61,229 bases of DNA from Raillietiella orientalis (lineage: Eukaryota). Each line of letters starts with the position of its first letter. Position 1 is the stretch's first letter. The stretch is from positions 1 through 61,229 of the forward strand of contig JAYWIR010000151.1 of assembly GCA_036172245.1 (NCBI GenBank), read 5' to 3'. The translations under genes and the position numbers were made by a program. The notes beneath the pieces were generated by a model. The model worked only from the letters and a program-made list of their open reading frames with translations, was not told the origin of the DNA and did not search any database. Shown piece after piece: positions 1 through 61,229 of the stretch.

Positions 1-808
1 ATTCAATGGAGTTTCCGGAGCGTGACGCCTCTCAGGTATTCGCGAAGGTGTTCCTTCGCACCTGGGAGTCGCGTCCAGTTCTCCGGCAGACGCCAATCCC
101 TGGATGGCGGTCCCTTGTCACGAGGCCGCATCTCGAAAATTCATTGGGAATGGTCCGACAACGTCGACGCAACCCTCCCCCGTTTGCCGACCCGTGAACA
201 CAGGTCAGCGTCAAGGAAGACGTGGTCGATGCTGCGGACCATTCCCCTCTCACCCGCGAAAAAGTTGCGCGCACGCATGGTGGCGCAAAACTCGTTCATC
301 GCGTTCTCTTGTGTTTCTGGCTCACCTGTTAGCAGAAAAAGATTGAAATCTGCCGCTATCAGGTGAGCCTTTCGCACATTGGTATCCGCCAGCCAGTCGC
401 GCTTCAGGATTTCCAGCAGCCTGGTGCGGTCGCGGTAACCCTGCTTGCCGCTGGGGCCATACACGTTTGTGACGATTAGGTCGATCGAGTCGGACCAGCT
501 GAGAATCAGCTGACCGATCCGACCGTCGTCATCAAACCGCACGCCCTTTACGGCAGCGTCGATGGCCGGCTTCACGAAGAACGCGACCCCGCAGGTGTTG
601 CGGAGGCCGCATCGCCAATAGAACCGACCCCCCCTGATCGTCTCGATCTCCTGGGCGTCTGCCGCGGTGATCACGTGGATCTCCTGCAGCAGAGCCAGGT
701 CGAGCTCACGCAGGGTGTCGGCCGTATCTCGCCTGTTGCCGTCGTCGCGCCGCCCGTTGACGTTCCAACAGGCCGCGCGAATCCGACGGCGACTGGCGAG
801 CCCAGGTG
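1..808 (-). pseudogene. A1 ORF2 N-terminal AP endonuclease domain (partial)
   Basis: ORF 141-674 has NVYGP, ADFN, SIDH and SDH; an internal stop follows at 143-141. Confidence 0.88.
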
Positions 809-2685
809 TTAGTCCTGGGAAAACGGCGATGCGGCCCCCGCCACCTGCTGGGGCGGGACGCTAGGTGGAGGGGGAGGGGAGACAGATACTGAAGGCACCT
901 GTTCCTCCTCCTCCATCGGTGCCGGCGCGTCGGCCGGATCACCCGCAGGTGGAGTCGCGCCTACCTGTTCGCCCTCCTCCATGGGTTCGGGCTGCTCAGG
1001 TTTCCCTACTGCAGGGAGGACTTCACCCCCCTGCTCACCCTCCTCCATGGGAGTGGCCGACTCGACGGCTACCGGGCGTGGGTATTCCCCTTCCGGGATT
1101 CCCACGCTGTCGCTTCCTTCCGGCTTCTCCTTCTCGCTGTTGGAGGGGAGGCGCCTCCTGGGTTTCTGGGACTTGCGTCATGACTTCCTGGGGGGTGCCT
1201 CTGAGGAGGAGGATCCGCTTCCGGCCCCCAGGTCGCACTCACCTGCAGGGGCCTTCTTCGTCGGAGCCGACCTGCGTACGCCCTTGCGCGACGGGGTTTC
1301 GCGCTCGGCGAGCGTTGCTGCGAGCTCCTCCGCCGCTTTCTCGAAGGCCGCGTCTTCGCCAGTGGCGACCGTTGCCGCGGGCTGCTCCGGGACCTTATCC
1401 AGCGCGGCGTCATCGCTGACGGCAAACCTTGCCGCGGGCTCCTCCGCGATTTTATCGAGCGCGGCGTCCTGGCTGTCGGCGCGCGAGTCTCGCGTCTCAC
1501 CCTCTAAACGTAGAATGGGCTGGTTTACGCGAGTATTCATCGCGTCCGCATCAGCTGTTCCGCGAACATTGCCGCGGGCGGACACGGCAGGAACGGCTAA
1601 GCGTTCCAGTGCCACCGAGCATTCGCGGAGTTGTTTTTTTTTTGAAAGCGGCGCGACCTTTTTCTTGTTGCCGGCAGTTTTCTTCTCCGACTTTTCTTCT
1701 GGCATTAATTTCTTTTTTTTTTCTTTTCTGGCCTGAACCAGCTGCCAACCCCCCTCCATTTCCGCGTTTACGGGAGATCTTTCCTCCGACGTCTGTAAGG
1801 GAGGAAGGGGGGCTGGCATTTGGGAACGGCCATTTTCGCGAGCTGGTCTTTCTACCAGCTTTCCACGTTTTCCCTGCGCCTTTTTGGTAACAAGGGGCAC
1901 CGGGGTGGGGCGCTTGAGGCACACGCGCCAAACGTGACCCTTTTCGCCGCAAAAGTAACACACAATGTTCGGGCACCTTTTTCGTAGATGCCCTACTGCA
2001 TTGCAGTAGCCACAAAATTGGCGTTTCCCCACGTACCAGAGGTCCACCGCTTCTTGGCAGACCTCCAGGTTGTGGAGAAGCGCACCACCCTCTTTTACGG
2101 TGATACGCGCCGCAGCTTGACCTCTGAAAGGCTATTGTAGCCTTGGAAAATCGTGGACTTCGGCCACAACGCGTGCACTTCTGCGTGCTTTTGTAACTGT
2201 TCGCGAACCGCTGATCTAGTCATGCGACTGGAGATCCCAGTGAGATCGACCACCACCGAGCGGTCCATCGTTACCGGCAAGATCTTCCGACCATCAACGA
2301 TCAGCGGGTGGGTGATCAGGTGTCGGGCCAAGGTGATATCCTTGCATACCACCTCGACCCGCTGCCCGCCGCTGAGGACGCAGAGGCCGTCCAGAACTTT
2401 TTCGAAGATATTGGCGTTCTGCAGCGCCTTCGTAAAGGCGCGTGCAGTTCGCCCATCGAGAAGGTTGCCTACCTTGTAGACTAGCGAGGGCTTATACCCC
2501 ACTTTCTTGTAGGCTTCCATCTCGGCCATGGCTTTCACGCTAGGCGCGGCCACCATGGCGCTCCATGACCTCGGCGTAGCCTAGGACAATTCCGGGGCGG
2601 ATGCCCCTGATCCAGTAGGCTGTGGGGACGAACAAGCCTCCATCACGCCTACTTCCATCGCGGTGTCCTCTGCCAACGCTGCCAT
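809..2685 (-). pseudogene. A1 ORF1, gag-like nucleic-acid-binding protein (stop codons and frameshifts)
   Basis: ORF pieces 2095-2556, 1178-2047 (CGYCNAVGHLRKRC, CYFCGEKGHVWRVC) and 809-1105 are colinear with A3 ORF1 (16877-18628). Confidence 0.88.
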
Positions 2686-2787
2686 CGGACACCGACTATG
2701 TGCACGCACAAATCACTCAAGAAAAAAAACCACTCGCCTTGCCACGCAGGCGGAGCGCAGGAAAAGCACGTCCTCTCTCCACAGCGG

Positions 2788-25000: not shown

Positions 25001-25003
25001 TCA

Positions 25004-28140: not shown

Positions 28141-28343
28141 TCCCTTCCCTGCCCCCCAACCTCACTTGTTTGTTTGCCTTTTTGTTTTTATTTTTGTTTT
28201 TCCTATTCCCTTTCGCTGCCGGGGAGTGCCACGCCGGGCTGCGTCCCGGCGTCCCGGTAGGTCCCGTGCATAAGGCCGTGAGCGGGGCCTGGTACCGCAA
28301 TTGTGGAGTTTTTATAAATAAACGCCCCGGGCGTACCCGGGTG

Positions 28344-33274: not shown

Positions 33275-33562
33275 GCGTCCGCCGTGCACCGCGCAGTCAG
33301 ACGCTACTACTTCTGGTTGTACGCAAAGGAGTCCACGGAATGCAGTCTCTTTGAGCTGCTTCTTCCGACGGGTAACCCTGCTATCGACGAAGAGGAACAC
33401 GCCAGATTAGATTGGCCCTTCAAGGCGGAAGAAGTATCTTCCGCTATAGCGGGCCTGATGAGGCGTAAGGCGCCTAGGGAGGATGGCCTGCCCACGGATT
33501 TCTTTCAGTGTTTCCCGGCGGAGGTCGTCCTTCTGGTGCTAAGCCTTTTCTCTCTGATGCGT
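33275..33562 (+). mobile_element. Copy E2, first fragment (ORF2 linker and RT start)
   Basis: AVRRYYFWLYAKES...RRKAPREDGLP...LFSLMR; continues as SLMRETGDVP at 50736. Confidence 0.8.
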
Positions 33563-35772
33563 TTTAAACCCGGTTGCGCCGGGACGTTTATTTGTGAAAA
33601 CGAACCACAATCTTCAAGGCAAATTCATCCTTTCTAGACACAAGAAACGCCCATACAGAAAGTTCAGTTCAGAAAGATCACCGGCACGCAGGTTGCCTTC
33701 CAAAAGAAAGGAACAGAGGAAGAGGGATACAAAATAAGCAAAACATGAGAAAACAAACAAAGAAACAGTGGAGGTTGGGGTCAGGGATCCATGGTAGTAA
33801 ACGTTCCTGATCTTTCTAGAAGCGCTGTTTGACAATGGCGAATTCCCTGGAGACTTTTCTGCGCAGATGAGGCCACTTGACAGCTGCTTTCATAAGGTTC
33901 GTAGCGATTCTAACGGCGTCCGTTCGCTGCGAGCTTCCTTCTAGTTTACGGCGAGCGATCACGATGGCGCGGATGCAAGAGATTGTTGCGATAACAGCGC
34001 ATTTATTTAGTCCGTCTTTGCTGAATAAGCGTCGAAGCAGGTCTGTGGCAGTGTCCTGAGGACGACGAAGTGCCGAAGCAAGTCTCCGCCATAACTCCCG
34101 CAAGTCATTACACTCAAGGAGCAGGTGCGTAAGCGATTCTATCGCCCCGCACCTGAGGCAGTTCGGGGAGACGACTTTCCCTGTAACCAAGTTTCTGCGC
34201 TTATTGCACTAGAATCCCCAGTGCAGAAAAAGAAGAACATCCTGTTTCCATCGAAGCGGGAACACGAAGCTGTCCACACACAAGGAAGGGACCACGAGTT
34301 CTTCGGGGAGTAATCCAAGAACCTCACTCCAACGAAGAAGTCCCTTTGCCAGATTACGAGGAGTGGCAGCGACTACTAACACGCTCGTTCTGCAGCGGCT
34401 CAGCAGACTTCCCATTTCTGCAATGCTGCAGAAGAACTCCCATTTTGCCGGTTGGCTACTGTCGTTGTTTGCTCTGAGAGCAGACAGCGCTGCGGCGATA
34501 AGTAAGACGACTATCCGGGACCAAAGCGACCAGTCCCTTAGGATCACTCCTAGCGGTTTGCGTAAGATACCCTGTAAGGGTCGCAGTTGCTGTGGGCGCA
34601 CATCCAAAGTGGACGTCCAGTGCTCCGAAGCTTCCTGCTGCCAAGCATTCCAATTGGAGGGGCGGCAGGAAATCCAGGAATGGGCTAACAGCAACGAGGA
34701 CAAGTGCCTCAGTGGATAGCCAAATCCAGTTCTCCGGCGAAGGTTGCGCGGCAGCAACGAAAGCAATCCTGCACTGCCGACACATCGCTGGAGAATATGG
34801 CGAGCCGGAGCACACCAGTGACTTGACCACAATTTCCCACGTAGGAATAGAAGCCGGAACTGCACTTGCAGTTCAATCTTCTGGATAGTCAGGATGCCCA
34901 GGCCTGCGTGCTGGCATGGCGCCACCAAATCTTTGAGGCGAACCCTGGATCGGGCAGCGCCCCACAAGACCTTACGTAGGAGACGCTTCGCCCGGAGTTT
35001 AACCAAATAGGGAGGCGGGCAAACAAAAAATAAGGGGCGGAGGAGGGGTAAAAGAAAAGTGTTCCATATGCACTCTTTTTCCAACAAGACAAACTTGCCT
35101 TCCAGGAACGGGCCTAGAGCCATCTCTGCCTTTTGAAGACAGGCCGACCACGATTCAGACGAGCAGAAGTCGCTTAACGGTACGTCAAGGTACTTGAAGT
35201 ACCTGAGCGTGGGGATTCCCAGGCGGATCCAGTCGACCTGTCCCTTCCACGACGCACCCATGGGCACGACGGACCACTTCGCCCTGTTAACGCTCATGCC
35301 CGCTCCACGACGGATCAGCTCGAAGAAGTCTTGGACCGAGTTCGGCGGATTAGACATGGTCAACAGAAGCAGAAGGTGGTCGGCGTATGCTGCCGCGGAC
35401 GGAGTGCACGAAGAGGCGCTGGGCAGAACGGCCAGCGTCTGCCTGTACGCTCTTAGCACCAACTAAAAGTAGATGCTGAAGAGCAACGGGCTTAAGCTGT
35501 CGCCCTGCCTGATGCCTCTGCGCACGGCCACTCCGTACACACGGGAGCCACTGAAATGCAAGTTGATCATCGCGTGGCGCTACCAGGAGCGCAAGTACAG
35601 GAGAAGATGATTCGAAAGCCCAAGACGCTTCAGGAGCCCCAAGAGGAGTTCCTGGTTTTCACAGTCGAACGCCTTGTGCGCTCTAGGGTGGACGTGTTTT
35701 CTCGGTGCTCCTCGTGCCAGGAAGTCTCCCTCAGTGCAAGCGTCGTGTGATTCGGTGGTCGATCAGGCAGCT

Positions 35773-37433
35773 ATGCCTGACGCGACCACCAGGGATGGCC
35801 AGAGGGCAGCGGCAACGCCGCCCCCAGAGGCGATGGAGAGCCAGGGGGCGGCGGAAACGTCGCCCCCATAGGCGATGGAGGTGAGGGCATCCGCATCCAC
35901 AGAATCGGTCCCCTCTGCAGCGCGGGCGTGGAGCGCCGTTCTGTCGGCGCCATCGCCTGCAGCCGCGGCGGAATTGTCGGCCTATGTAGAGGAGGGGTAC
36001 AACCCCTCATTGTTCTACAAGGTAGGCAATTTATATTCTTTAGAGAGCGCGTGCGCCTTCTCGAAGGGCATGCGCGCTCTCGATGTGAAAGAGGAGGAGC
36101 TCAGCGCTATGACCATCCGCAGCGGGGGTCAGTACGTTGAGGTCATCTGCAAACATGCAGAGCTGGCCCAACGACTGCTTAAAACCCCCGTTGTGATGGG
36201 GACGCGCAGGGTTCAACTCACTACGGCGGACCGCAGCATGGTGGTCCACCTGTTAGGCGTGACCGCGCGAATGCGCAAAGACCAGGTTCGCGCCGCTTTG
36301 GAACAGTTTGGAACGGTCCACGCTCAGTGGACGAAAGTTAGTCCTCTCGGAGACTACACGGGGCTGCAACACGGCCTCACTGCTGCGCGCATGACCGTTC
36401 GGGAGGGCTGCACTCTTCCCCACAAACTGGTGGTCGAAGGCGAAACCGTCGAAATCTGGTATGTGGGGAAGCCGAAATACTGTGGCTTCTGCAATACGTC
36501 GGGCCACCTCAAAAAAAGGTGTCCCAATGTGCAGTGCCAAGTATGCGGCACAATGGGCCACACGAGGGAGGTGTGCCCAAAAGCAGCAGTGCGGGTGGTT
36601 TACAAGAGAAACCTTAAAAAACGCGCCCGGCTTCTGCAGAAAAGACTGGAGGCGAAAGCTGCCGCGAAGGCTGTGCCACCCGCGCCCAAGACCCAGGCCG
36701 CACCCGAGACCCCGGCGACCAACGCCGAAAAAGTTGAGGGAGCCGGCCAGGAGACTGAGTGGCAAGTGGCAACAGCCAAAAAATCAAAGAAGGAGAGGAG
36801 GATGGAAAAGAAAATCGCCTACCAACAGAAGAAGAAAGAGCAGGGTAGCGCGATAATTAAAGAGTGCAGCGTCGTTGTCGAACGCGTTCTCGATGTTGCC
36901 GAACGCTGCCGGAAAGAATTCGCCGCTACCGACGACCTCCCTCTGTTGACACAGTCAACAGCGAGGGGAGCGAGCCGGCGGCGGCGTCCGTCATCGACAC
37001 CACCATCGATGACGTAGCCTTCGCGCGAGCCGCGGAGGAGCTGGCAGCCTCGTTGCAGCCAGAACCCTCCAAGGCTGGCAAGAAGGCCGTAAGGCGTCCG
37101 GCCTCCCCTCAGGAGTCCCCCACTTCCTACCCCGAGGTGGAGGCCGGAAGCGCAGCCTCCGTTTCCACAGAACCGCGCAAGAAGGCTGGACGTAAGTCCA
37201 CAAAGCCAAGGAAGCTCGTCTCCCCCGCCGAAGGGGAAGAGATGGCTTCCGCAAGCGAGGGTGCCATGAGCGTGCGAAACTCTCGGGACCCGTCGCCCGA
37301 GAGACTCCCACGCACGGACACGGAGGGGATGGAGGGGGTGGAGGCCGAACAGGTGCCTCAGGTGCCTGAGAAGGCCGAAACCCCCATGGACATCCCGCCC
37401 GCCTCGCAAGAGGAGGGCTCCACCACACCTTAA
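35773..37433 (+). pseudogene. C1 ORF1 (TAG at 35869-35871, frameshift near 36940)
   Basis: ORF 35875-37017 has CGFCNTSGHLKKRC and CQVCGTMGHTREVC. Confidence 0.88.
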
Positions 37434-37447
37434 TCTTCCCAGCAGTA

Positions 37448-40400
37448 ATGCCGGGAATCTCCTCCCGCCGTCGTCTGCGCATCGCCGTTTGGAACGTGAA
37501 CGGCATGACAGACGCCGGCAGGAGACAAGACATGGTTGCCCTTCTGGAGTCCTACGACCTTGCGCTGCTGCAGGAGATCCACGTGATCTCTGCAGAACAA
37601 GCGCAGGAGATCGAACGGATCTCCGGAGAGCGGCTATGGTACAGGCGTGGGAGAGCGAAAAGTTGCGTTGTCGCCTACCTGCTTCGGCCAGCCGTCGAGG
37701 CCGCGGCTTGGGGCGTGCGGTTCGACGATCACGGTCCTGTCGGCCAGCTGACTCTCAGGTGTTCCGACTCGATCGATCTGATCGTCACGAACGTGTACGC
37801 ACCGAGCGGCAAGAACCTGATGAACAGGAGGGCGAGGAAAGAGTTTTTCCTTGCCCTCCGGCGAGACTGGCTGACCGAAACAGGCGTGCGGAATGCCCAT
37901 CTGGTTGCAGGCGATTTCAACGTTCGCCTGAAACCAGATGAGCAGAATGCCGAGCGTGACCTGGTCAACGAGGTGTGCATGGCGGTGCACACCTGGAATC
38001 TGTTGGCCAGTGCACCGGGGATGAAAGACAGCGTTGACCACGTGTTTCTTGACCAGCACCTGTGCCCTCGCGAGAGCAGGCGCGGCAAGTTACCGTGCGA
38101 GTTGTCCGACCATCGCCCGCTAGTCCTCGAGATCCATCCGCGCGACAGGGGCCCCCCCTCGTCAGCGTGGCGTCTCCCAGGGGACTGGCTGAAGCTCCCG
38201 GACGCGGCGGAACATCTCCGCACGTTCATACGGAGCTTCAGTCTGCGGACACTCCAGGATTGGGACCGCTTCAAGCGGTCGGTCCAGGAGTTCTGCGACC
38301 AGTTTCCTCTGCACCGCCTACCTACGGGTTTTGGGACCGGGGTCCGTAACGAACGAGCCTACCTTGAGGCCCGTCGTTACGCCAGGACCCCCGACATCCG
38401 CAGGCTGGCAAAAGACAAAGCGGAAGCCGAGAGGCAAGCCTGGCAGTCCGGATCGGCCAGCTTACTGGACGATCAGGGCCAGGAGCACTCGGCACCTTCC
38501 CAAATGCGCGGCCTGCTGCGGAGTTACTACACCTCCCTGTATGCCAGGGCACCTCCGGAGAGGAACGTCTCACGTCTCCTGCTTCCGGAAGGCACTCCAT
38601 CGATCATGGAGGAGCAGAGAAAGACCCTCGACGAGCCTTTCACGATGGACGAGATCCTCTCGGCCATCGGAAAGCTCAAGAGGCGAAAGGCTCCAGGGGA
38701 GGACGGCCTGCCCGCGGAGTTTTATCAAACTTTCGCGGCTGAGCTTACCCCCCTGGTACAGCAACTCACCTTGCTGATACGCGAAACAGGTGACGTTCCC
38801 GCCTCGTTTCGTTCGGCAAAGGTGCGGCTCCTCCCTAAGGGAGGAGATCTGAGGAGCATGAAGAACTGGCGTCCCATCACAATAGTGAATGCGGACGCCA
38901 AGTTGGTGGCCAAGGTTTGGGCAGAGCGTCTGGGACGGGTTGCCAACATCTTCATCAGCCCGGAACAGACATATGCTGTTCCCGGGCGAAGCATGGAGGC
39001 GAGCCTGTTCCACGCTTCCACCTGGCTAGAGCTCCAACATGAAAGGAGCTTGGTGCGCAGCTGGAATTCCGGTGCGTGCGCCGGCAAGGGGTTGGATGGT
39101 CGGGTGGGGGAGGGAGCCCTTGCGGTCGCAATCGACTTGCAGAAAGCATTCGATTGCGTCGACCAGAATCTCCTTCTGGAGCTTCTGGAACGCTTGGGCT
39201 TCGCGGCCTCATTAGTGGCCTATCTGCGCTTCTGCTGGCGCGACGCGCTCATCATTGTTACTTTCCGCGGGCAGACGGTGCAAGGCGTGTTGGTGCGGCG
39301 TGGGATCCGGCAGGGAGAAAGCCTGAGCCCCTTGCTCTTCAGTACCTACTTTGAGTTGGTACTGAGAGCGTACAGGGGAACTCTAGCGCACCTGCCGCAC
39401 GACTGTACCGGTACGCCGGCCGTTTTAGCATACGCGGAGGACCTTCTGCTGCTGCTACCTATGTCCACCCCGGCTGCGGCGGTCGAGGAGTTCTTCGACC
39501 TGCTACATCGGGGAACCGGACTTACGGTGAACAGGGCGAAGTCGTCCGTGATGCCAGTTTGTGCGGCGTGGGCAGGGCAGCAGGACTGGGTCCGTTTGGG
39601 GATCCCCACGGTGAGGTACTTCAAGTACCTTGGTGTGCCGTTGGGGGACTACTCCCCTGCGGAAGCGTGGTCCGGCTGCCTTCAAAAAGTAGAGACGGCG
39701 ATCGGCCCGTTCCGAGGCGGCAGGTTTTTCCTGGCTGAACGGGCCGCGGTTTGGAACACGTTCGCGGCTCCTCTCCTCCGCGCCCTGCTTTTTGTTTGCC
39801 CCCCCACAGAGATGATTAAAAAGCGGACAAAGGACCTCCTCCGTATCGCCCTTTGGGGCAACGGGAGGGCCCGAGTCCGCTTAAAGGACTTGTGCGCTCC
39901 TCGTCGGGATGGTGGTCTGGGCCTCCTGACGCTGGAGCGGCTGGAGCTTCAGCTCCAGTTCCGCTTGTCGGCTCTCGTTCCAGAGTTGTGGTGCACCTGT
40001 TGCTGCGTCCCTGCTCGTCTCCTACTCCAGCAAGCCACCGGCAAGACGGGACTGACGTCGTTTCTTGCACTCCGTCGCCGCGTCAACCGATGCGGACTCC
40101 AGCTACGGAGGGTGGCTGCGCTGTATCGGAAAAACCCAGGATTGCTCACCTGTCGCCCGTTTAACGGTAGTGCCTGGTTGCAGGAAACCGTTCGAACGTG
40201 GGGACGGTTCGGCATGCAACGCTCCCAACAGGAACGAAGGTTCCTGTTTGGGGGTTACAGAAGTTGCACACTCCGCGAGATCCTGGAGGATCCAAAGAAG
40301 AGAGCGTGGGCGGGATGAACCCCCCTCGCTGCTGCGCTTCCTTCCCTGAAGGAAGATCTGGACAGCGATGTTGCGGCGAAGTGGGTGGTTTCAGTATCAA

Positions 40401-41000
40401 TCTCGGGAAAGGAGAAGAAGATAGGAGAGTGGAAGACGGGGCAGTTAACAGACGCTGCTGCCCCGAGTACGCCTCGCAATGGACTTCTGCACTGGGGCGC
40501 GCTGCTCGATGTTCTCATTGAACATCTGAAGTGGCCCCCGGTGCTCATGAACACTTCCGCCCTCCTTTTAAAATGGCAGGAGTCGGCTCTCCTGTTGCAG
40601 CACTGGGGACTCCCCTCCAACGCCCGCCGACACCACTGGACCTGGGGAGCGGTGGTCCCCAATTGCGTCAGGTGTGGGGAACGGGAATCCCTCCCCCACC
40701 TGCTATTGGATTGTGTTGCCCTTCGGCCCCTTTGGTTTCGCTTTGCCGCGGCCATCGGAATCCCCTGCGGCAACCCCAGGGACGCACTGAAAGCCCTCTT
40801 CGTTGCCGACGCCCTTCGGCCAGCGGCCTCGTTAGCAGCTTTGTGCTGCCTACGCGGGAGGACAACGCGACCAGGGTGCCATCCAGCCAGCCTCCCAGTT
40901 CCTGAGGAGGGCGTCCCGATGGCCCCACCTGGATCCAGGAATACAGAAGAAGCTTGCCGGCATCCTGCAAAGGATGCAACGGCCCCACCAGCAACTGTGA
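37448..41000 (+). pseudogene. C1 ORF2 APE-RT-zinc finger (956 aa open, catalytic YADD changed to YAED, stop at 40318)
   Basis: WNVNG, LQEIH, NVYAP, GDFN, SDH, WRPIT, DLQKAFD, RQGESLSP, YAED and KYLG; zinc finger in ORF 40385-41107. Confidence 0.92.
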
Positions 41001-43798
41001 TCCCTTCCCTTACCCTCCCAACTTTTCTTTTCTTTTTTGTTTTGTTTTTTGTTTTTCCCCCTTCCCCCTGCTGCCGTGGTGGACCGTACCGGTCTGCAAA
41101 CCGGTGACCCGGCAGGCTCTGTGTTTCTTCGTGCGTGGCTGGAGCAATGGTCCAGCCACCGCACGTCTTTGTAAAAGTTTATTTTACAATAAACGCCCCG
41201 GCGAAATCCGGGTGAAAATCGAATGCTTTGTGCAAATCTACTGCTAGTGCCAAGGCTCCCGGCCTTTCTCCCGTCCGTCCGCACTAGCGCACGCAGTCGG
41301 CAGAAGTTCTTGCTGCTGTTCGGCTATCCGCAGCAACGCGCTCTTAAAGCTGCCACCAGGTGCGCGCGTGAAGAAGGTTCGCATCCATGGATCTACCCGG
41401 TACAGGGTAAGACTGCTCTACGCTTACCACGGACTCCGCGACTTTCCCTAAGCGCGTGACTCACAGCTTTGAAAACACCTTGACGTCCGTATTCACTAAT
41501 GTGATCGGACGCCAGTTGTTGAGTTGGCGCAGATCTTCTCCTTTCGGGAGGAGACGCACCCTCGCTGAGCGGAAGGAAGAAGGGACATCGCCCGTCACCC
41601 TAATCAGCGTCGAGATTCTAAGCACTAGTGGGGCGAGTTCCGCCGCGAAGCTCTTATAGAACTCCGCGGGCAGTCCGTCCTTACCTGGCCTCTTCCTTCT
41701 CTTGAGTCCTGCGATGGCGCAAGAAACTTCCTCCAACGTGAAGGGCTCGTCGAGACGATCGCGTTCCTCCTCGCCGACGCCATGTGCAGTTCGCGGCAAA
41801 AGTAGTTCGAAGAGGACTCTTTCCGTCGGGGAATTAGCGTAGAGCAAGGAGAAGTGACGCTTTAGTGCTCGCCGCACTTCGGCAGGAGCCGTGCATTCCC
41901 GAACTTGGTCGTCGAGCAGAATAGCCGCTCCAGACTGCCAGCCCTGGCACTCGGCCCTCGCCTTGTACTCTGCGAATTGCCGGACTTCCGTAAGTCTCGA
42001 GAAGGTGCGCGCCTGCAGAAATGCTCTACTATTGGCCACGCCTTTCCCGGAGCCGCGTGGTAGCAGGTGCAGGGGGAACCGGTCGCAAAACTCACGAACC
42101 GATCGATCTTTTAAGATGGTCCCAGTCTGCTAGTTCCCGGATGGCAAAGCCGCGAAGGAACTGGGAAAGATGCTCCGCGGCTTCCTTATGACTCAGCCAA
42201 TCCTCCGGCATCCTCCAAACATTGTTTGGAGGTTCCTTGCCCGGTGGGAGTAGCTCGAACTCCAGCCTATCATGGTCCAATAACGTGGACGGCACCCTGT
42301 CTCTCCTTCCCACTCGTGAGAGTAGGTGTTCATCGAGGTAGAGGTGATCCACGCACCTTTCCAGTTCAGGCTCGCCGGCTTCCAAGTTACGCGCGTACAC
42401 CGAAGCGCATGCCTCTTCCACGCACGACCGTTACGCCGGAGACCTCGTCCCGTTGCAAAGCAGGTGGACGTTGTATTCCCCTGCGACGAGATGTGACACT
42501 CTGGCTCCGGAGTTCCTGAGGCATTGGCTCTCCAGCACATCAAAGAACTCGATTCTTTCGACACGCCGATGAAAGCCGCTCGGTGCGTAGACGTTCGTTA
42601 CGACGAGGTTGATTGAATCTGACCACTTGAGTACAAGTTGGCCCATTCGCCCTACATGGTCGAATCCAACGCTGCGCACCGCTCCCGCCATCCTACTATG
42701 TACGAGTAACCCGACTCCGTACGATTGTGCAGAACCTTCTCGCCAGTATAGGGTGCCACCCGCGCGCTGTTCGATTTCGGCAACCTTCGCATCGGAGATG
42801 TAATGCATCTCCTGAAAAATCGCCAAATCGAAATGTCGCAGGGTGTCTGACACGTCTCGCCTTTTTCCGTCCCTGGGCAGTCCATTGACGTTCCAACAGG
42901 CTACGCTGAATCGACGAAAAGAGGCGACTTCCTGCATTAAGGCTGGGAAGGTGAGCACAGATTTCTCGCCTTGTCCGGCGAGTGGTCACGAGACAGAGCG
43001 GTCGATCTCGGAGACTGGACATCTCCATTCGACGCCGCACTGCTTGTTGCCGTTAGCTCAGAGGTGAGGTCCTCTTGCTGCTCTTTGCTCCCCAGCAACA
43101 CTTCCTCCTCGGCAACCACGCGCTTGCGGGTCTTCGGGAGGCGATTGCGCGGTTTCGGGCGGTTGTCGCGCTGTTTGCTTTTTCTGTCGGAATCTAGATC
43201 AGAATCCGACAGTCGAAGGCTTGCCAGGCGCTGCTGCTGTTTCCCGGAATTAGGGAAATCGTTCGCAGCCTGTTTCCTAGCGCTTTCTGCAACTGCGGCT
43301 GGGACACTCGTCCTTTTAGCCACTGCAGCAGCCTCCCGCTCCATCCACGAGAGGACGACTGCGCAGTAAGAAAGAATTCGCAATCCTTTTCTGGGTAGGT
43401 TTCGCGGGTTTCTTTCGCTCACTACACCTTAACACAGAGCTGCGAAGACCTTGATGGTTTCTTTCTAATGAACCTTCTAACCTGCAGCCAGCCGTCTTCC
43501 TTCGCGTCGCAGTTATCTTTGCCATCCTGAGATGGCGCTGCTTCCAAGGATGTAAGAGGCGTTGCCTTGGCTGCCTCTTGGAGTGCTTCCTCCTCGCAGG
43601 CGTAAGCAACTCCTCTAGCGATCGCGAGAGCCTTGCGCACGGGCGGTATCGCCGCCGCTGAACGAAAGGGAGGCGTGATTATAGCTAGTTTAAAACTATA
43701 CCCAATACCCCGCCAAGGCAGTGTTTAAAACCACTGCCAAGCCAATTTTTGAGTGCCCTGAGAGAGCAAGTGTTTGAGTGAACGCCAGTGTGGAAAGA

Positions 43799-45685
43799 AT
43801 GCAACCCGGGACCATCATCAGCAGCAGCAGCAGCGCCGAGAAGTCCACGGTGGAAGTCCTGAAGTCGTCCCGAGCAGCCGGAACAGCTGCCAGGATACAG
43901 GCATCTGGAGTTGGAGGAGTGGTGAGGCCATCGTCCCCCATGGAAGCCATGGAGGTAACGTGAGGCAACGGCGAGGTGGCATCAGGCATGCCGAAGATCG
44001 CGCCCGCAAAGGGCTTTGCTGCGCCGGCTGCACCGATGCCAAGGGTCGTGCCCGCGGCGACGACGGCAGAGGTCGTGCCCGCGGCGGCGACGACGAGGAT
44101 CGTGCCCGCGGCGGGGAAGGTCGCGCCTGCGGCGACGATGCCGAGGGTGCCGCCCGCGGCGGTAACGGCGGCAACGTCGAGGTTTGCGCCCGCGGCGGTG
44201 GCGTCCCAGGCGGGACCCGCGGGCGTCCACGCGGTGCAGGGAGCGACGCCATCTTGTTCGGCTGCGGCGTCGCGGCCCTTTTCTTATGCGTCGGTGGCGG
44301 CTGGACAGGCGAGTGTCCACCCACCTAGGAAATTCGGTAAGCCGCTTAGCGGAAAAGTACTAAAAGTGGACCGACCAATAGTCGAAATAGGCCCCAACGT
44401 GAAGCCCATTATCTTCAAGACGGGGCTAATAAAATTTAATAACATGAGGGAGATCTATCTGTCCCTCGACAAGACGGACATAGACTTTGATCGCATTCAG
44501 GCGATCATTCCATCGAACAACGGGTTCACAGTCTTTACAGACTGTGAAAACATTAGAGAGCGATTGATCCAGAAGGGGATCAATATACAAGGACGGATGG
44601 TTTGTGGTATTGGCGAGATGCCATACACAACCGTCTTTTTAAACGGCATCTCCATCCTCACACAGCAACTAGCGGTGTGGAATTACTTGGAGCAGTTTGG
44701 GGAAGTATTGGACGTTGATTTCCAGAACTTCTCTGGAAACATATTTTCTGGCGACATGATCACCAAGATGAAGTTGAGGGAGGGAGCGGTGATCCCTGGA
44801 CTCGCCGTTATTGACGAACAATCCCAGGGAGTGAATGTGCGTTACCGGCAACAACCGGTATTCTGCACCGGGTGCAAGCAGTTCGGCCACAGGGCCAGCG
44901 CTTGCTAAACTTGCCGCTGCTTTCAATGCGGCAAACTAGGACATCAAGTCCGAAACTGCCCGCAGCCGGAGGTGTGCTCCTTCTGCAAGAAACACGGACA
45001 TGCGAAATGGAGCTGTCCGGAGTTTCAAAACTGCAGAAGGATTCGAAGTCTGTCTCCCGTGAGAGAGAGATACATCAAGGAGGCCGCACAGCCTCAGAAG
45101 GCAGGAAGGCAGAAAAACGTCAAAGAAGCCGTCCCGGTGTCGACAGACGGCTTCATAGAAGTGGGAAAGAAGGGAAAGAGAAACATGCTCGTCAAAAAGC
45201 AAGGAACTCCTCAAATCCTGGAAGCAGCAGAGCAGGAAGGCGAGAAGATGGAGGTAGCGCAGGAAGGCGCGGAGGAAAAGAGACAGGAAGCCACTAAAGT
45301 GCCACAGGAGGCTCTGCAGACCACGGAGGAGTTAACAACACTGGCGGAGGAGATCATGGAGGTGCAGAGCGGTCCTCAACAAGAGAAAATCTTGCAGAAG
45401 ATCTGCACTGCACAAGAGAACATCAACCAGGTGGTGGAGGTCGCTGAACGCGAGAAGTTAGAGGAACAGCTTCTCGACGTGAAGGCGAACTTCTGCGCCA
45501 AAGTCGAAATAGAGGCGCTATCTCGAAAATTGAACGCGCAGGCGGAACACTCTACGGAGGAGGCGGAAATTACCGACCTCACAGGTACGGAGAGTGACGC
45601 CGGCAGCGAGAAGCCCGCTGCTTCTTCGACGTCTGGAAGAGCACGCTCTCGCAGACAGAAGAAGCTCAGGAAGGCCAAGAAATAG
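43799..45685 (+). pseudogene. L ORF1 (in-frame stops at 43963 and 44908)
   Basis: ORFs 43778-43963, 43976-44908 and 44972-45685 share a frame; knuckles CTGCKQFGHRASAC, CFQCGKLGHQVRNC and CSFCKKHGHAKWSC. Confidence 0.85.
44030..44200 (+). repeat. Degenerate coding minisatellite (units of about 21-30 bp with a GTGCCCGCGGCG core) in L ORF1
   Basis: Repeated CCCGCGGCG encoding VVPAATT, VVPAAATT, IVPAAG, VAPAATM and VPPAAV. Confidence 0.75.
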
Positions 45686-45698
45686 GTCTTCCCCTTTT

Positions 45699-53320: not shown

Positions 53321-54473
53321 ACGACAACGCTTCATTCTTTTATCTGCTCGCTTGCCTGCTGTTTTTTCTGGCGGTATGCAAGCTTTTTCTCTAATCTCCT
53401 CTCCTTCTTTGATTTTTTCGCCGTTGCCAATTGCCACCCATTCTCCTGCCCGGCTCCCTCAACTTTTTCGGCGTTGGTCGCCGGGGTCTCGGATGCGGCC
53501 TGGAACTTGAGCGCGGGTAGCACAGCCTTCGCGGCAGCTTTCGCCGCCAGCCTTTTCTGCAGAAGCCGGGCGCGTTTTCTAAGGTTTCTCTTGAAAACCA
53601 CCCGCACTGCTGCTTTTGGGCACACCTCCCTCGTGTGACCCATTGTTCCGCATACTTGGCACTGCACGTTGGGGCACCTTTTTTTCAGGAGGCCCGACGG
53701 ATTGTAGAAGCCACAGTATTTCGGCTTCCCCACATACCAGAGGTCGACGGTTTCGCCTTCGACCATCAATTTGTGGGGAAGAGTGCAGCCCTCCCGAATG
53801 GTCACGCGCGCAGCCGTGAGGCCATGTTGCAGTCCCGTGTAGTCCTCGAAAGGACTAACTTTCGTCCATTGCGCGTGGACCGTTCGGTATTCCTCCAACG
53901 CGGCGCGATCCTGTTAGTTGCGCATCCGCGCGGTAACACCCAACAGGTGGACCACTATGCTGCGTTCCGCCGTAATAGGGAGGAGCCTGCGCATCCCCAT
54001 CACACCTGGGGTTTCAAGCGGTCGTTGCGCCAGCTCAGCATGTTTGCAGATGACCTCAACGTACTGATCCCCGCTGCGGATGGTCATAGCGCTGAGCTCC
54101 TCCTCTTTCACATCGAGAGCGCGCATGCCCTTCGAGAAGGCGCGCGCGCTCTCTAAAGAATAAAGGTTGCCTATCTTGTAGAACAATGAAGGGTTGCACA
54201 CCTCCTCTACATAGGCCGACAATTCCGATGCTGCTGAAGGCGATGGCTCCTACACAATGGCGCTTCACGCCCGCGCTGCATTGGCACTGATTCTGTAGGG
54301 GCGGATGCCCCCACCTCCATCGCCTCTGGGGGCGGCGTTGCCGCTGCCGCCTGGCCATCCCTGGTGGTCGCGTCAGGCATCACTGCCCAATCGACCACCG
54401 AACCACACGACGCTTGCACTGGGGGAGACTTCCTAGCACGAGGAGCCCCGAGAAAACTCTACCACCCTGGAGC
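53321..54473 (-). mobile_element. Family C copy C3, 5' UTR and ORF1 part, more diverged, in tandem with C2
   Basis: ORFs 53914-54222 and 53332-53898 are homologous to C1 ORF1; 5' end GCTCCAGGGTGG. Confidence 0.9.
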
Positions 54474-54488
54474 ACGCAAGGCGTTCGA

Positions 54489-57400
54489 TTTTCACCCGGA
54501 TTTCGCCGGTGCGTTTATTATAAAACAAACATTTACAAAGACGTGCAGTGGCTGGACGATTGCTCCAGCCACGCACGAAGAAACACAGAGCCTGTCGGGT
54601 CATCTGCTCGCAGACCGGTACGGTCCACCACGGCAGCAGGATGAAAGGGAAAAACAAAAAACAAAACAAAAAAAGAAAAGAAAAGTTGGGAGGGTAAGGG
54701 AAAAGATCACAGTTGCTGGTAAGACCATTGCATCCTTTGCAGGATGCCGGCAAGCTCCTTCTGTATTCCTCGATCCTAGTAGAGCCATAGGGACGCCCTC
54801 CTCAGGAACTGGGAGGCTGGCTGGAAGGCACCCTGGTCGCGTTGACCTCCCGTTGCCTTCCTCCAATTGGTGACGATCCCGCGTAGGCAGCACAAAGCTG
54901 CTAACGAGGCCGCTGGCCGAAGTGCGTCAGCAACGGAGAGGGCTTTCAGTGCGTCCCTGGGGTTGCCGCAGGGGATTCCGTTGGCTGCGGCAAAGCGAAA
55001 CCCAAGGGGGCGAAGGGCAACTCAATCCACTAGCAGGTGGGGAAGGGACTCCCGTTCCCCACACCTGACGCAGTTGGGGTCCACCGCTCCCCAGGTCCAG
55101 TGGTGACGGCGGGCGTTGCAGTGGAGTACCCAGTGCTGCAACAGGAGAGCCGAATCCTGCCATTTTAAGGGCACGGTGGAAGTGTTCATGAGCACCGGGG
55201 GCCACTTGAGATGTTCAATGGGAACATCGGGCAGCGCGCCCCAGCGCAGAAGTCCATTGGGATGCGTACTCGGGGACGCAGCGTCTGTTAACTTACCTGT
55301 CTTCCACTCTCCTAACTCCTTCTCATTTCCGGAGAACTTAACTGAAACCTCCCACTTCGCCGCAACATCGCTGTCCAGATCTTCCAGCAATGAGGGTAGC
55401 GCAGCAGCGAGGGAGGTTCTTCCTGCCCACGCTGTCTTCTTTGGATCCTACAGGATATCGCGGAGCGTGCAACTTCTGTAACCACCAAACAGGAACCTTC
55501 GTTCCTGTTGAGAGCGTTGCATGACGAACTGTCCCCACGTACGAACGGTTTCCTGTTACCAGTCACTACCGTTAAATGGGCGACAGGTGAGCAATCCTGG
55601 GTTTTTCCGATACAGCGCAGCCACCCTCCGTAGCTGGAGTCCGCATCGGTTGACGCAGCGACGGAGTGCAAGAAGCGACGTCAGTCCCGTCTTGCCGGTG
55701 GCTTGCTGGAGAAGGAGACGTGCGGGGACGCACCAACAGGTGCACCACCACTCTGGAACGAGTGCCGACAATCGGAACTGGAGCTTAAGCTTCAGCCGCT
55801 CCAGCGTCAGCAAGCCCAGACCACCGTCCCGACGAGGAGTGCACAAGTCCTTTAAGCGGACTCGGGTCCTCCTGTTGCCGCAAAGGGCGATAAGGAGGAG
55901 GTCCTTTGTCTGCTTTTTAATTCTTCCTGTGGGTGGGCAAACAAAAAGCAGGGAACGGAGGAGAGGAGCCGCAAACGTGTTCCAAACCACGCCCCGTTCA
56001 GTCAGGAAAAACCTGCCGCCTCGGAACGGGCCGATCGCCGTCTCTACTTTTTGAAGGCAGCCGGACCACGCTTCCGCAGGGGAGTAGTCCCCCAACGGCA
56101 CACCAAGGTACTTGAAGTACCTCACCGTGGGGATCCCCAAACGGACCCAGTCCTGCTGCCCTGCCCACGCCGCACCAACTGGCATCACGGACGACTTCGC
56201 CCTGTTCACCGTAAGTCCGGTTCCCCGATGCAGCAGGTCGAAGAACTCCTCGACCGCCGCAGCCGGGGTGGACATAGGGAGCAGCAGCAGAAGGTCGTCC
56301 GCGTATGCTGAAACGGCCGGCGGACCGGCACAGTCGTGCGGCAGGTGCGCCAGAGTTCCCCTGTACGCTCTCAGTACCAACTCAAAGTAGGTACTGAAGA
56401 GCAAGGGGCTCAGGCTGTCTCCCTGCCGGATCCCACGCCGCACCGGCACGCCGTGCACGGTCTGCCCGCTGAAAGTAACATTGATAAGCGCGTCGCGCCA
56501 GCAGGAGCGCAGATAGGCCATTAATGAGGCCGGGAAGCCCAAGCGTTCCAGAAGCTCCAGAAGGAGATTCTGGTCGACGCATTCCAATGCTTTTCGCAAG
56601 TCGATTGCGACCGCAAGGGCTCCCTCCCTCCACCCGACCATCCGACCCCTTGCCAGAGCACGCACCGGAATTCCGGCTGCTCAATAAGCCCCTTCCTTGT
56701 TGGAGCTCTAACCATGTGGAAGCGTGGAACAGGTTCGCCTCCATGCTCCGCCCGGGAACAGCATAAGTCTGTTCCGGGCTGATGAAGATGTTGGCAACCC
56801 GTCCCAGACGCTCTGCCCACATCTTGGCTATCAACTTGGCGTCCGCATTCACTATTGTGATGGGACGCCAGTTGTTCATGCTCCTTAGGTCTCCTCCCTT
56901 CGGGAGGAGCCGCACCTTTGCTGAACGAAACGAGGTGGGAACGTCACCTGTTTCACGGATCAGCAAGGTGAGTTGCTGTACCAGGGGGGTAAGCTCAGCC
57001 GCGAAAGTTTGGTAAAACTCCGCGGGCAGGCCGTCCTCCCCTGGAGCCTTCCGCCTCTTGAGCTTTCCGATGGCCGAGAGGATCTCGTCCATCGTGAAAG
57101 GCTCGTCGAGGGTCTTGCTCTGCTCCTCCCCGATCGCTGGAGTGCCTTCCGGAAGCAGGAGTCGTGAGACGTTCCTCTCCGGAGGTGCCCTGGCATACAG
57201 GGAGGAGTAGTAACTCCGCAGCAGGCCGCGCATTTGGGCAGGTGCCGAGTGCTCCTGGCCCTGATCGTCCAGTAAGCTGGCCGATCCGGACTGCCAGGCT
57301 TGCCTCAAGGCTCCCGCTTTGTATTCCGCCAGCCTGCGGATGTCGGGGGTCCTGGCGTAACGACAGGCCTGCAGGTAGGCTCGTTCGTTACGGACCCCGG

Positions 57401-60058
57401 TCCCAAAACCCGTAGGTAGGCGGTGCAGAGGAAACTGGTCGCAGAACTCCTGGACCGACCGCTTGAAGCGGTCCCAATCCTGGAGTGTCCGCAGCCTGAA
57501 GCTCCGTATGAACTTGCGGAGATGTTCCGCCGCGTCCGGGAGCTTCAGCCAGTCCCCTGGGAGACGCCACGCTGACGAGGGGGGACCCCTGTCGCGCGGA
57601 TGGATCTCGAGGACTAGCGGGCGATGGTCGGACAGCTCGCACGGTAACCTGCCGCGGCTGCCCACGCGAGGGCACAGGTGCTCGTCAAGAAACACGTGGT
57701 CAATGCTGTCTTCCATCCCCGGTGCACTGGCCAACAGATTACAGGTGTGCACCGCCATGCACACCTCGTTGACCAGGTCACGCTCGGGATTCTGCTCATC
57801 TGGTTTCAGGCGAACGTTGAAATCGCCTGCAACCAGATGGGCATTCCGCACGCCTGCTTCGGTCAGCCAGTCTCGCCGGAGGATAAGGAAAAACTCTTTC
57901 CTCGCCCTCCTGTTCATCAGGTCCTTGCCGCTCGGTGCGTACACGTTCGTGACGATCAGATCGATCGAGTCCGACCACCTAAGAGTCAGCTGGCCGACAC
58001 GACCGTGATCGTCGAACCGCACGCCCCGAGTCGCGGCCTCGACGGCTGGCCGAAGCAGGTAGGCGACACCGCAACTTTTCGCTCTCTCACACCTGTACCA
58101 TAGCCGCCCTCCGGAGATCCGTTCGATCTCTTGCGCTTGTTCTGCAGAGATCACGTGGATCTCCTGCAGCAGCGCAAGGTCGTAGGACTCCAGAAGGGCG
58201 GCTATGTCTCGTCTCCTGCCGGCGTCTGTCATGCCGTTCAGGTTCCAAACGGCGATGCGCAGACGACGGCAGGAGGAGATTCCCGGCATTACTGCTGGGA
58301 AGATTAAGGTGTGAGGGAGGCCTCCTCTTGCGAGGTGGTCAAGATGTCCATGGGGGTTTCGGCCTTCTCAGGCACCTGAGGCACCTGTTCGGGCTCCACC
58401 TCCTCCATCCCCTCCGTGTCCGTGCGTGGGAGTCTCTAGGGCGACGGGTCCCGAGAGTTTCCCACGCTCATGGCACCCTCGCTTGCGGAAGCCATCTCTT
58501 CCCCTTCGTCGGGGGAGACGAGCTTCCTTGGCTTTGTGGACTTACGTCCAGCCTTCTTGCGCGGTGCCGTAGAAACGGAGGCTGCGGTTCCGGCCTCCAC
58601 CTCGGGGTCGGAAGTGGGGGACTCCTGAGGGGAGGCCGGACGCCCTACGGCCTTCTTGCCAGCCTTGGAGGATTCTGGCTGCAAAGAGGCTGCCAGCTCC
58701 TCCGCGGCTCGCGCGAAGGCTACGTCATCGATGGTGGTGTCGATAACGGACGCCGCCGCCGGTTCGCTCCCCTCGCTGTTGTCTGTGTCAACAGAGGGGA
58801 GGTCGTCGGTAGCGGCGAGTTCGTTCCGGCAGCGTTCGGCAACATCGAGAACGCGTTCGACAACGACGCTGCACTCTTTAATTATGGCGCTACCCTGCTC
58901 TTTCTTCTTCTATTGGTAAGCGATTTTCTTTTCCATCCTCCTCTCCTTCTTTGATTTTTTAGCTGTTGCCACTTGCCACTCAGTCTCCTGGCCGGCTCCC
59001 TCAACTTTTTCGGCGTTGGTCGCCGGGGTCTCGGGTGCGGCCTGGGTCTTGGGCGCGGGTGGCACAGCCTTCGCGGCAGCTTTCGCCTCCAGTCTTTTCT
59101 GCAGAAGCCATGCGCGTTTTTTAAGGTTTCTCTTGTAAACCATTCGCACTGCTGCTTTTGGGCACACCTCCCTCGTGTGACCCATTGTGCCGCATACTTG
59201 GCACTGCACATTGGGACACCTTTTTTTGAGGTGGCCCGACGTATTGCAGAAGCCACAGTATTTCGGCTTCCCCACATACCAGATTTCGACGGTTTCGCCT
59301 TCGACCACCAGTTTGTGGGGAAGAGTGCAGCCCTCCCGAACGGTCATGCGCGCAGCAGTGAGGCCGTGTTGCAGCCCCGTGTAGTCTCCGAGAGGACTAA
59401 CTTTCGTCCACTGAGCGTGGACCGTTCCAAACTGTTCCAAAGCGGCGCGAACCTGGTCTTTGCGCATTCGCGCGGTCACGCCTAACAGGTGGACCACCAT
59501 GCTGCGGTCCGCCGTAGTGAGTTGAACCCTGCGCGTCCCCATCACAACGGGGGTTTTAAGCAGTCGTTGGGCCAGCTCTGCATGTTTGCAGATGACCTCA
59601 ACGTACTGACCCCCGCTGCGGATGGTCATAGCGCTGAGCTCCTCCTCTTTCACATCGAGAGCGCGCATGCCCTTCGAGAAGGCGCACGCGCTCTCTAAAG
59701 AATATAAATTGCCTACCTTGTAGAACAATGAGGGGTTGTACCCCTCCTCTACAGAGGCCGACAATTCCGCCGCGGCTGCAGGCGATGGCGCCGACAGAAC
59801 GGCGCTCCACGCCCGCGCTGCAGAGGGGACCGATTCTGTGGATGCGGATGCCCTCACCTCCATCGCCTATGGGGGCGACGTTTCCGCCGCCCCCTGGCTC
59901 TCCATCGCCTCTGGGGGCGGCGTTGCCGCTGCCCTCTGGCCATCCCTGGTGGTCGCGTCAGGCATAGCTGCCTGATCGACCACCGAATCACACGACGCTT
60001 GCACTGAGGGAGACTTCCTGGCACGAGGAGCACCGAGAAAACACGTCCACCCTAGAGC
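54489..60058 (-). mobile_element. Family C copy C2, full length (ORF1 59965-58304, ORF2 58289-54707; both disrupted)
   Basis: GGACGTG at 60048-60042; ORFs 58910-59863, 56382-58289 and 55556-56665 (YADD); 3' hairpin at 54519-54493; flanks 54474-54488 and 60059-60073. Confidence 0.95.
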
Positions 60059-61217
60059 GCACAAGGCGTTCGACTGTGAAAACCAGGAACTCCTCTTGGG
60101 GCTCCTGAAGCGTCTTGGGCTTTCGAATCATCTTCTCCTGTACTTGCGCTCCTGGTAGCGCCACGCGATGATCAACTTGCATTTCAGTGGCTCCCGTGTG
60201 TACGGAGTGGCCGTGCGCAGAGGCATCAGGCAGGGCGACAGCTTAAGCCCGTTGCTCTTCAGCATCTACTTTTAGTTGGTGCTAAGAGCGTACAGGCAGA
60301 CGCTGGCCGTTCTGCCCAGCGCCTCTTCGTGCACTCCGTCCGCGGCAGCATACGCCGACCACCTTCTGCTTCTGTTGACCATGTCTAATCCGCCGAACTC
60401 GGTCCAAGACTTCTTCGAGCTGATCCGTCGTGGAGCGGGCATGAGCGTTAACAGGGCGAAGTGGTCCGTCGTGCCCATGGGTGCGTCGTGGAAGGGACAG
60501 GTCGACTGGATCCGCCTGGGAATCCCCACGCTCAGGTACTTCAAGTACCTTGACGTACCGTTAAGCGACTTCTGCTCGTCTGAATCGTGGTCGGCCTGTC
60601 TTCAAAAGGCAGAGATGGCTCTAGGCCCGTTCCTGGAAGGCAAGTTTGTCTTGTTGGAAAAAGAGTGCATATGGAACACTTTTCTTTTACCCCTCCTCCG
60701 CCCCTTATTTTTTGTTTGCCCGCCTCCCTATTTGGTTAAACTCCGGGCGAAGCGTCTCCTACGTAAGGTCTTGTGGGGCGCTGCCCGATCCAGGGTTCGC
60801 CTCAAAGATTTGGTGGCGCCATGCCAGCACGCAGGCCTGGGCATCCTGACTATTCAGAAGATTGAACTGCAAGTGCAGTTCCGGCTTCTATTCCTACGTG
60901 GGAAATTGTGGTCAAGTCACTGGTGTGCTCCGGCTCGCCATATTCTCCAGCGATGTGTCGGCAGTGCAGGATTGCTTTCGTTGCTGCCGCGCAACCTTCG
61001 CCGGAGAACTGGATTTGGCTATCCACTGAGGCACTTGTCCTCGTTGCTGTTAGCCCATTCCTGGATTTCCTGCCGCCCCTCCAATTGGAATGCTTGGCAG
61101 CGGGAAGCTTCGGAGCACTGGACGTCCACTTTGGATGTGCGCCCACAGCAACTGCGACCCTTACAGGGTATCTTACGCAAACCGCTAGGAGTGATCCTAA
61201 GGGACTGGTCGCTTTGG
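60059..61217 (+). mobile_element. Family F copy F2, RT C-terminal fragment (host of C2)
   Basis: Near-identical reverse complement of 34521-35679; begins HKAFDCENQELL. Confidence 0.92.
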
Positions 61218-61229
61218 ACAGGAAGCATC

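Follow-up and report, generated by a model that had tools for sequence, protein, structure and literature searches.

A LINE found repeatedly at one 14-bp site in the reverse transcriptase codons of another LINE, and mosaic identity between its loci, in Raillietiella orientalis

The window analyzed here is contig JAYWIR010000151.1 of Raillietiella orientalis (assembly GCA_036172245.1, 61,229 nucleotides), and all copy counts, flanks and trees are drawn from within these 61 kb. We compared the window with itself by BLAST and used tblastn to map fragments of the second open reading frame (ORF2) of its long interspersed nuclear elements (LINEs). The resulting map shows that the window, with a GC content of 53-61% across its length, consists of little else than nested non-long terminal repeat retrotransposons of one broad L1-like group, which we denote by letters. 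Our subject is one of them, C, whose full-length copy C.1 interrupts a second LINE, F, within the codons of the HKAFD motif of the reverse transcriptase (RT), and which recurs at an inverted locus in the same window (Table 1).

C.1 carries an ORF1 (35875-37433) with two CCHC knuckles, CGFCNTSGHLKKRC and CQVCGTMGHTREVC, recognized by eye in the translation, and an ORF2 starting at 37448, in which Pfam identifies an apurinic/apyrimidinic endonuclease (APE) domain (Exo_endo_phos, 1.1e-9, amino acids 14-222) and an RT domain (RVT_1, 4.3e-18, amino acids 463-731). Towards its C-terminus, ORF2 contains a CxxC...H...C motif, CVRCGERESLPHLLLDC, also read by eye, which lies in frame after a stop codon private to this copy. 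The N-terminal APE and the RT of ORF2, the CCHC knuckles of ORF1 and the C-terminal Cys/His motif are those of an L1-like APE LINE; no Pfam family matched the ORF1 of C, and a zf-RVT domain occurs in relatives of C beside the same Exo_endo_phos and RVT_1 domains. The 5′ terminus begins with CGCTCTAGGGTGGACGTGTTTTC and the 3′ terminus reads ...AATAAACGCCCCGGCGAAATCCGGGTGAAAA (...CCGGGTGAAAA), where the poly(A) typical of the L1 clade and of Zepp is not present. Its lesions show C.1 to be dead: ORF1 has a private 1-bp deletion at 36938 (polarized by comparison with C.2 and a C-like fragment, 8878-9053), ORF2 has a private TGA at 40316-40318, and the RT reads YAED where 9 of the 11 other copies examined have YADD (F has YADH, and B is frameshifted there).

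Table 1. Positions of C, its flanks and other mapped features of the window
Feature	Position	Strand	Remarks
F-left	33562..35664	-	3′ part of F (F 3′ end = 33562): ORF2 codons past HKAFD to the C-terminal Cys/His motif, and 3′ untranslated region (UTR) with AATAAACG-hairpin box; tblastn, ORF2 amino acids 565-930 at 35678..34581
Left target-site duplication	35665..35678		TCGAACGCCTTGTG; F sense CAC AAG GCG TTC GA
C.1	35679..41218	+	Full-length L1-like non-LTR retrotransposon, 5.5 kb; translations, Pfam
Right target-site duplication	41219..41232		TCGAATGCTTTGTG; F sense CAC AAA GCA TTC GA
F-right	41233..42982	-	5′ part of F ORF2: APE domain and RT up to HKAFD; tblastn; homology to D.b stops at 42982
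C′	53321..54474	-	Third C, of which the 5′ 1.15 kb is present; 85% identity with C.1 and C.2
14-mer between C.2 3′ end and C′ 5′ end	54475..54488		C orientation TCGAACGCCTTGCG
C.2	54489..60059	-	Second full-length C; self-BLAST, tblastn
14-mer between F-left.2 and C.2	60060..60073		Plus strand CACAAGGCGTTCGA; identical to left duplication of locus 1
F-left.2	60074..61217	+ (F sense)	F sequence past HKAFD, second copy; self-BLAST, tblastn
Near-identical patch	34522..36557 = 61217..59181		1143 bp of F-left, left duplication and first 879 bp of C
D.b	19096-25002		Within HE.b (16770-19095 and 25003-28343)
D.a	9921-13442		Precedes E.a (13443-16768)
3′ ends with AATAAACG box	5773, 13442, 16768, 25002, 28343, 33562(-), 41218, 53320, 54489(-)		
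5′ ends with GGACGTG(T/C)T(T/C)TT motif	9046, 16770, 19096, 35679, 54474(-), 60059(-), about 50733(-)		

On either side of C.1 lies one copy of a 14-bp target-site duplication (TSD), and beyond each copy the sequence continues as F. The translation of F-right ends with ...ALALAVDLHKAFD and that of F-left opens with HKAFDCENQELL..., and excising C together with one 14-mer yields a continuous F RT frame that is collinear with the other LINEs of the window. The interrupted motif, x-K-A-F-D/E, can be aligned in each of the 10 other LINE copies examined, in decayed form in B and C.2, and its equivalent in C's own ORF2 falls within the RVT_1 match. The flanks, the F translations and the restored frame agree with one another, and they bear out the proposal of the first-pass annotation that C sits antisense in the RT HKAFD codons of F. 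Both parts of the host element have decayed, F-left with three in-frame stops, no frameshift and YADH instead of YADD, and F-right with four in-frame stops and one frameshift near 42103.

The two TSD copies are identical at 12 of 14 positions (15 bp if the next base C, common to both sides, is counted), and a repeat of this quality that abuts an inserted element precisely on either side is not due to chance. As the same annotation had noticed, they differ only synonymously: the two C/T mismatches are third-position changes in F (Lys AAG/AAA and Ala GCG/GCA). It had called this weak statistics, and rightly, as the probability that both mismatches fall on third positions under uniform mutation is (4/14)(3/13) = 0.066, calculated for two sites only.

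Self-comparison of the window also reveals an inverted second locus, overlooked by the first-pass annotation, where 61217-54477 matches 34521-41230. Read in C orientation, the order at locus 2 is F-left.2, TCGAACGCCTTGTG, C.2, TCGAACGCCTTGCG and C′. C.2 has lesions of its own (a 1-bp insertion opposite 39107, several stops, a 29-bp insertion and a change of KAFD to KALE) and an intact YADD. The 5′ end of C′ is intact and begins at the same base as C.1 and C.2, and its other end stops at C position 36878, where LINE G (50734-53320, plus strand) cuts it off with its 3′ end. C.2 and C′ certainly arose by separate events, because they are 85% identical and stand in tandem around one 14-mer. G itself is inserted antisense into C′ (53320/53321), beside TCGAACGCGTT, which is similar to the 11 bases with which C's own target begins. 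A 42-bp tandem duplication (two copies, 87% matches) spans the 5′ UTR and the start of ORF1 in both full-length copies (35798-35880 in C.1, 59858-59940 in C.2).

The 14-mer is present at all five visible flanks of the three C copies. The first-pass annotation had looked to other C copies with unrelated flanks, together with F parts of a single lineage, as evidence against its proposal, and the window contains no such C copy. With at least two independent hits at one site, C is therefore likely to be a site-specific LINE: its three copies in the window comprise independent insertions at the same position, in the same orientation and with the same TSD. Two observations weigh against this reading. 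C.1 and C.2 may derive from one insertion that was later duplicated, and perfect 14-mers lie unoccupied in D.a (11242), D.b (22801), E.b (26243) and K (31834), so that the 14-mer alone does not guarantee insertion. C's own RT motif at 39140-39153 is CAG AAA GCA TTC GA (CAGAAAGCATTCGA), which encodes QKAFD, with His replaced by Gln, and is one base away from the AAA GCA form of the target; the decayed C.2 has CGA AAA GCA TTG GA. The CAG codon in place of CAC may or may not be a form of self-immunity that shields C from self-insertion.

Outside the window, a metagenome scan for a 19-mer of the C 3′ end returned 20 loci, none with C-like surroundings and most in apparent coding sequence, which we read as chance. 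The one public run found (X1, 0.15 of sampled words), which consists of short contigs of relatives, gave 329 pieces aligned at 85% likeness, mostly 200-480 bp long, 127 of them less than 90% alike. No piece among those listed bridges the C/F junction. Two contigs cross 35678 into 13 letters of an uninterrupted RT motif of the D/E type and are thus not assignable to F, and one joint (34971 to 41834) does not match an empty site.

The two loci are not evenly related along their length. Over 34522-36557 they differ at 4 of 2037 positions (99.8% identical), versus about 295 of 4675 positions over the rest of C (36558-41232; about 94% identical; Fisher p = 1.5e-41). On the right, the near-identical patch breaks off sharply within C ORF1, at a point from 35985 to 36557; on the left, its edge is genuine, since the window's final 12 bases do not match locus 1. 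A second step occurs inside C, where divergence rises from 4.4% over 36558-39000 to 8.4% over 39000-41218 (p = 2e-8). Such abrupt changes of identity along two collinear copies are the pattern of gene conversion or ectopic exchange, and a crossover alone cannot create identity; therefore, gene conversion, or a process equivalent to it, has copied sequence from one locus to the other. Exchange between the loci through C is very likely, and gene conversion is its inferred mechanism. The second pair of loci that share a junction, D in HE, is likewise mosaic, with divergences of ~3% (H), 4% (D) and 14% (E). The 12 terminal bases (61218-61229) also occur within LINE M, at 48389-48400 of the minus strand, a match that may be chance (at least two matches in 7 of 100 shuffles).

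The coding sequences of C.1 and C.2 carry a further record of their history. We found no inactivating lesion common to both copies, and each has private ones. Descent from a single dead ancestor was sought through a shared frameshift and is rejected, since there is none and the stop at 40318 is private to C.1. Differences between the two ORF2s show an excess of synonymous and third-position changes (ratio of nonsynonymous to synonymous change, dN/dS, 0.66; binomial p = 0.016; codon-position chi-square p = 0.007). Some of the C.1/C.2 divergence therefore accumulated while the lineages were active, and this speaks for separate insertions or for conversion from further copies of C.

The nick positions can be read from the junctions under the standard model of target-primed reverse transcription. 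The C endonuclease would nick the F sense strand between TTCGA and CTGTG, with the F sense strand serving as the primer strand, and the opposite strand would be nicked after TTGTG, at a distance of 14 nt. Nicks staggered in this way would place every C antisense in the HKAFD codons, with the same 14-mer on either side. The duplication regenerates the target; therefore, a later C can land beside an earlier one, giving the tandem of C.2, 14-mer and C′. Many loci would then share an F::C junction with homology extending across it, and these loci could exchange sequence by gene conversion or ectopic recombination. The 2.04-kb patch, comprising F-left, the left 14-mer and the 5′ end of C, would be a recent copy from one of the two loci to the other, with one tract end in C ORF1. 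The account in its entirety, in which a site-specific APE LINE regenerates its targets, its loci exchange sequence across shared junctions and the TSD mismatch results from that exchange, stands in our judgment at an even balance.

As to the origin of the mismatch, we lean slightly towards AAG GCG and AAA GCA being a synonymous difference between two F copies that were joined by exchange. The left 14-mer of locus 1 lies inside the copied patch and the right one outside it; therefore, the two need not descend from one target molecule. The 14-mers of locus 2 agree at both variable positions (C, C) and those of locus 1 are discordant, which fits what is expected if the left side of locus 1 was imported from locus 2. 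Both wobble states exist in LINE families of the window: D.a, D.b and E.b have AAG GCG, K and C itself AAA GCA. Deamination of CpG was considered as a cause of the C>T changes and rejected, as the observed/expected ratio of CpG is ~1 and there is no decay bias.

Several results count against the involvement of two F copies. We built trees from 870 bp upstream of the site (F-right) and 1100 bp downstream of it (F-left), in which F is the only sample of its family. The (D,G,F) clade takes in F-right with support of 100/100 and F-left with 70/97.6, the rows closest to each part are Db, Da and G, the path distances to D are similar, and the decay of the two parts is alike, so far as three stops can be compared with four stops and one frameshift; nothing marks F-left and F-right as different copies. 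The donor and the recipient of the patch are not distinguishable, and with locus 1 as the donor, both of its 14-mers would be original and plain mutation would account for the mismatch. At the 8-10% divergence of the C 3′ end between loci, about one TSD difference is expected, and the probability of two or more is 0.07-0.33, depending on the assumed age. The third-position argument, as said, counts two sites. The first-pass annotation had suggested that two different F copies were hit at the same site and later recombined through C. Reuse of the site, seen at the C.2/14-mer/C′ tandem, and exchange through C have held up, and the call for different F copies has not found support; the separate placement of the F parts, which it had proposed as a check, assigns both to one lineage, at family level only.

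Ordinary mutation offers another origin for the mismatch. A single C insertion would have produced a perfect 14-bp TSD, whose right copy later acquired two unrelated C>T changes, at third positions by coincidence, and locus 2 would be a segmental duplicate that subsequently gained C′ and a conversion patch that left the 14-mer states unaltered. We regard this as possible, if on the doubtful side. F is dead, with stops in both parts, so that no selection would oppose such changes; the two parts belong to one lineage at family level; the dN/dS of 0.66 is not far from neutral; and the C 3′ end whose 8-10% divergence was given above directly adjoins the right TSD. With 2.2-4.2% decay per lineage, two or more changes in 28 sites have a probability of 0.13-0.33. 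On this origin, however, it remains a coincidence (0.066 by chance) that both changes are synonymous, and both reproduce states of other families; CpG hypermutability is absent. It also leaves aside that the left TSD lies within a patch demonstrably copied between loci and that the locus 2 pair agrees at both variable positions, and the uneven divergence along C (0.2%, 4.4% and 8.4%) is impossible from one duplication alone.

Exchange itself would be called into question if, during assembly or polishing, reads of one repeat copy had corrected the other and thereby produced the 2-kb patch, perhaps including the state of the left 14-mer. This is very unlikely: the patch has sharp edges on both sides and retains four real differences, the D in HE pair shows a similar mosaic with quite different values, and the C.2-C′ tandem and the TSD are independent of the patch, even though the region is a dense repeat nest, locus 2 stands at the window end and the short contigs of run X1 did not confirm the junctions. 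Nor does the 14-mer appear to be a terminal direct repeat belonging to C instead of duplicated F sequence. Its presence at every visible C end and its resemblance to C's own RT motif would suit such a repeat, but each flank continues the F reading frame (…DLHKAFD / HKAFDCENQ…), intact relatives carry a single copy of the motif at the collinear position, and excising C with one copy restores F, all of which make it extremely improbable. Taken together, an artefact or other explanations are unlikely. Two more specific candidates were rejected. Locus 1 as a 5′-transduced retrocopy would have its true left TSD in the TCGAATGCTTTGTG at 31834, and that 14-mer is inside an uninterrupted K RT that is ~70% identical to F-right. 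Templating of the right TSD by read-through RNA from a donor flank was dismissed on mechanism, by which the primer strand should keep the target's own letters.

Three further sites in ORF2 codons, besides HKAFD, are recurrently used for nesting in the window. Family D lies in sense orientation within the APE GDFN codons of HE, bounded by a perfect 9-bp duplication, ATTTCAATC; it occupies the same point in two adjacent units, and the empty D site is visible in an intact HE (minus strand, 2775..1). The second site is near amino acid 352, where the 3′ end of B adjoins N in antisense at 5773/5774 (D.b equivalent 22154). At about 33279-33283, a plus-strand ORF2 fragment that starts at D.b 22148 is adjoined, again antisense, by a minus-strand element with its 5′ end; at these two junctions, two elements thus meet two D-like targets at the same ORF2 position within ~10 nt. 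The third is near amino acid 440 (D.b 22418-22430), where the 3′ junction of F (33554-33562) and the 5′ junction of P against G (50725-50746, with the P 5′ end at about 50733) fall antisense at the same ORF2 point. The flanks there, CGCATCAG..., overlap by 8-13 bp, implying an 8-13 bp duplication, and these junctions suggest that F itself may be site-specific. We tentatively entertain, at somewhat less than an even balance, a self-targeting LINE guild in which the endonuclease of each family is specific for a different conserved ORF2 motif of other families. If this is true, C would use RT HKAFD, D would use APE GDFN, B/K-like elements the site near amino acid 352, and F and P the site near amino acid 440.

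The families of the window also share terminal features. In all of them, a 3′ box, AATAAACG(C/T)CCCGG-loop-CCGGGT, lies few bases before the terminus and poly(A) is absent; we found no covariation in this hairpin, whose 4-bp stem is invariant. Full-length elements of different families have a common GGACGTG(T/C)T(T/C)TT motif 6-13 nt downstream of their 5′ start, which may be a common initiator or internal promoter. The sole non-LINE gene found in the window is a complete U4 small nuclear RNA (snRNA) gene at 43629-43766 on the plus strand (Rfam RF00015, 78 bits, model positions 1-138 of 138). Within ~200 bp downstream of it starts the distant LINE M (ORF1 from 43976, ORF2 45594-48614), whose ORF2 is 29% identical to that of C and which is possibly an snRNA-associated LINE.

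Target-specific LINEs include Tx1L, which inserts in the Tx1D transposon, and R1, which inserts in 28S ribosomal DNA (rDNA). The target-specific APE LINEs of the Tx1 and R1 clades use ribosomal RNA genes, transfer RNA genes, microsatellites, telomeres and transposons, according to the part of the source available to us (PMC4640811). Like them, C has an ORF2 with APE and RT, one defined sequence of a multicopy target, a TSD of fixed length, and tandems split by a regenerated target; the likeness is one of domains and insertion habit, not of RT phylogeny. Unlike theirs, the target of C lies in the codons for a conserved catalytic motif of another LINE's RT and is entered in antisense.

In nesting habit only, the window resembles the nested L1 clusters Zepp and ZeppL of green algae, so far as the consulted portions of the sources describe them (PMC3446292; 10.1101/2020.06.13.149070; PMC9940879): it is GC-rich and almost wholly made of L1-type LINEs nested in each other. 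The nested L1 clusters of Chlamydomonas change by unequal exchange rather than active transposition, in the excerpted account of PMC9977147, which parallels the mosaic of the F::C loci. Zepp and L1-1_CR end in (A)n in the accessible Table 3 of PMC3747384; unlike Zepp, the elements of the window end in the AATAAACG-hairpin box without poly(A) and belong to several distinct families, not one. The subtelomeric arrays of the LINE Cnl1 in Cryptococcus, as far as the text at hand goes (10.1101/2021.08.11.455996), are arrays of LINE copies like the window's nest and expand and contract, and recombination is considered there besides transposition. Unlike C, Cnl1 is described in the same portion of that source as preferring GC-rich regions, with TSDs that are variable (1-12 bp) or absent and no fixed 14-bp site in an RT motif. 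We found no LINE that targets the catalytic-motif codons of another LINE in the literature searched, part of it in excerpt; an earlier description, for example in the original Zepp work, may exist.

Site-specific LINEs are natural examples of programmable RNA-templated insertion and models of transposons that spare their host. C would add a new class of target, the coding sequence of a transposon, at its most conserved and hence most durable positions. Targeting of a 14-bp stretch that encodes a catalytic RT motif would likewise be a way for LINE-only clusters, among them those at algal centromeres, to nucleate and expand. It follows directly from the mosaic of the loci that shared junctions between elements let gene conversion run from an insert into its host element, and conversion across such junctions matters when nested insertions are dated from the divergence of their TSDs or flanks. 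If the guild is real, LINE ORF2 would be a multicopy safe harbour, as rDNA is for R1/R2, and the nest would expand as regenerated targets are hit hierarchically, with gene conversion homogenizing it across shared junctions.

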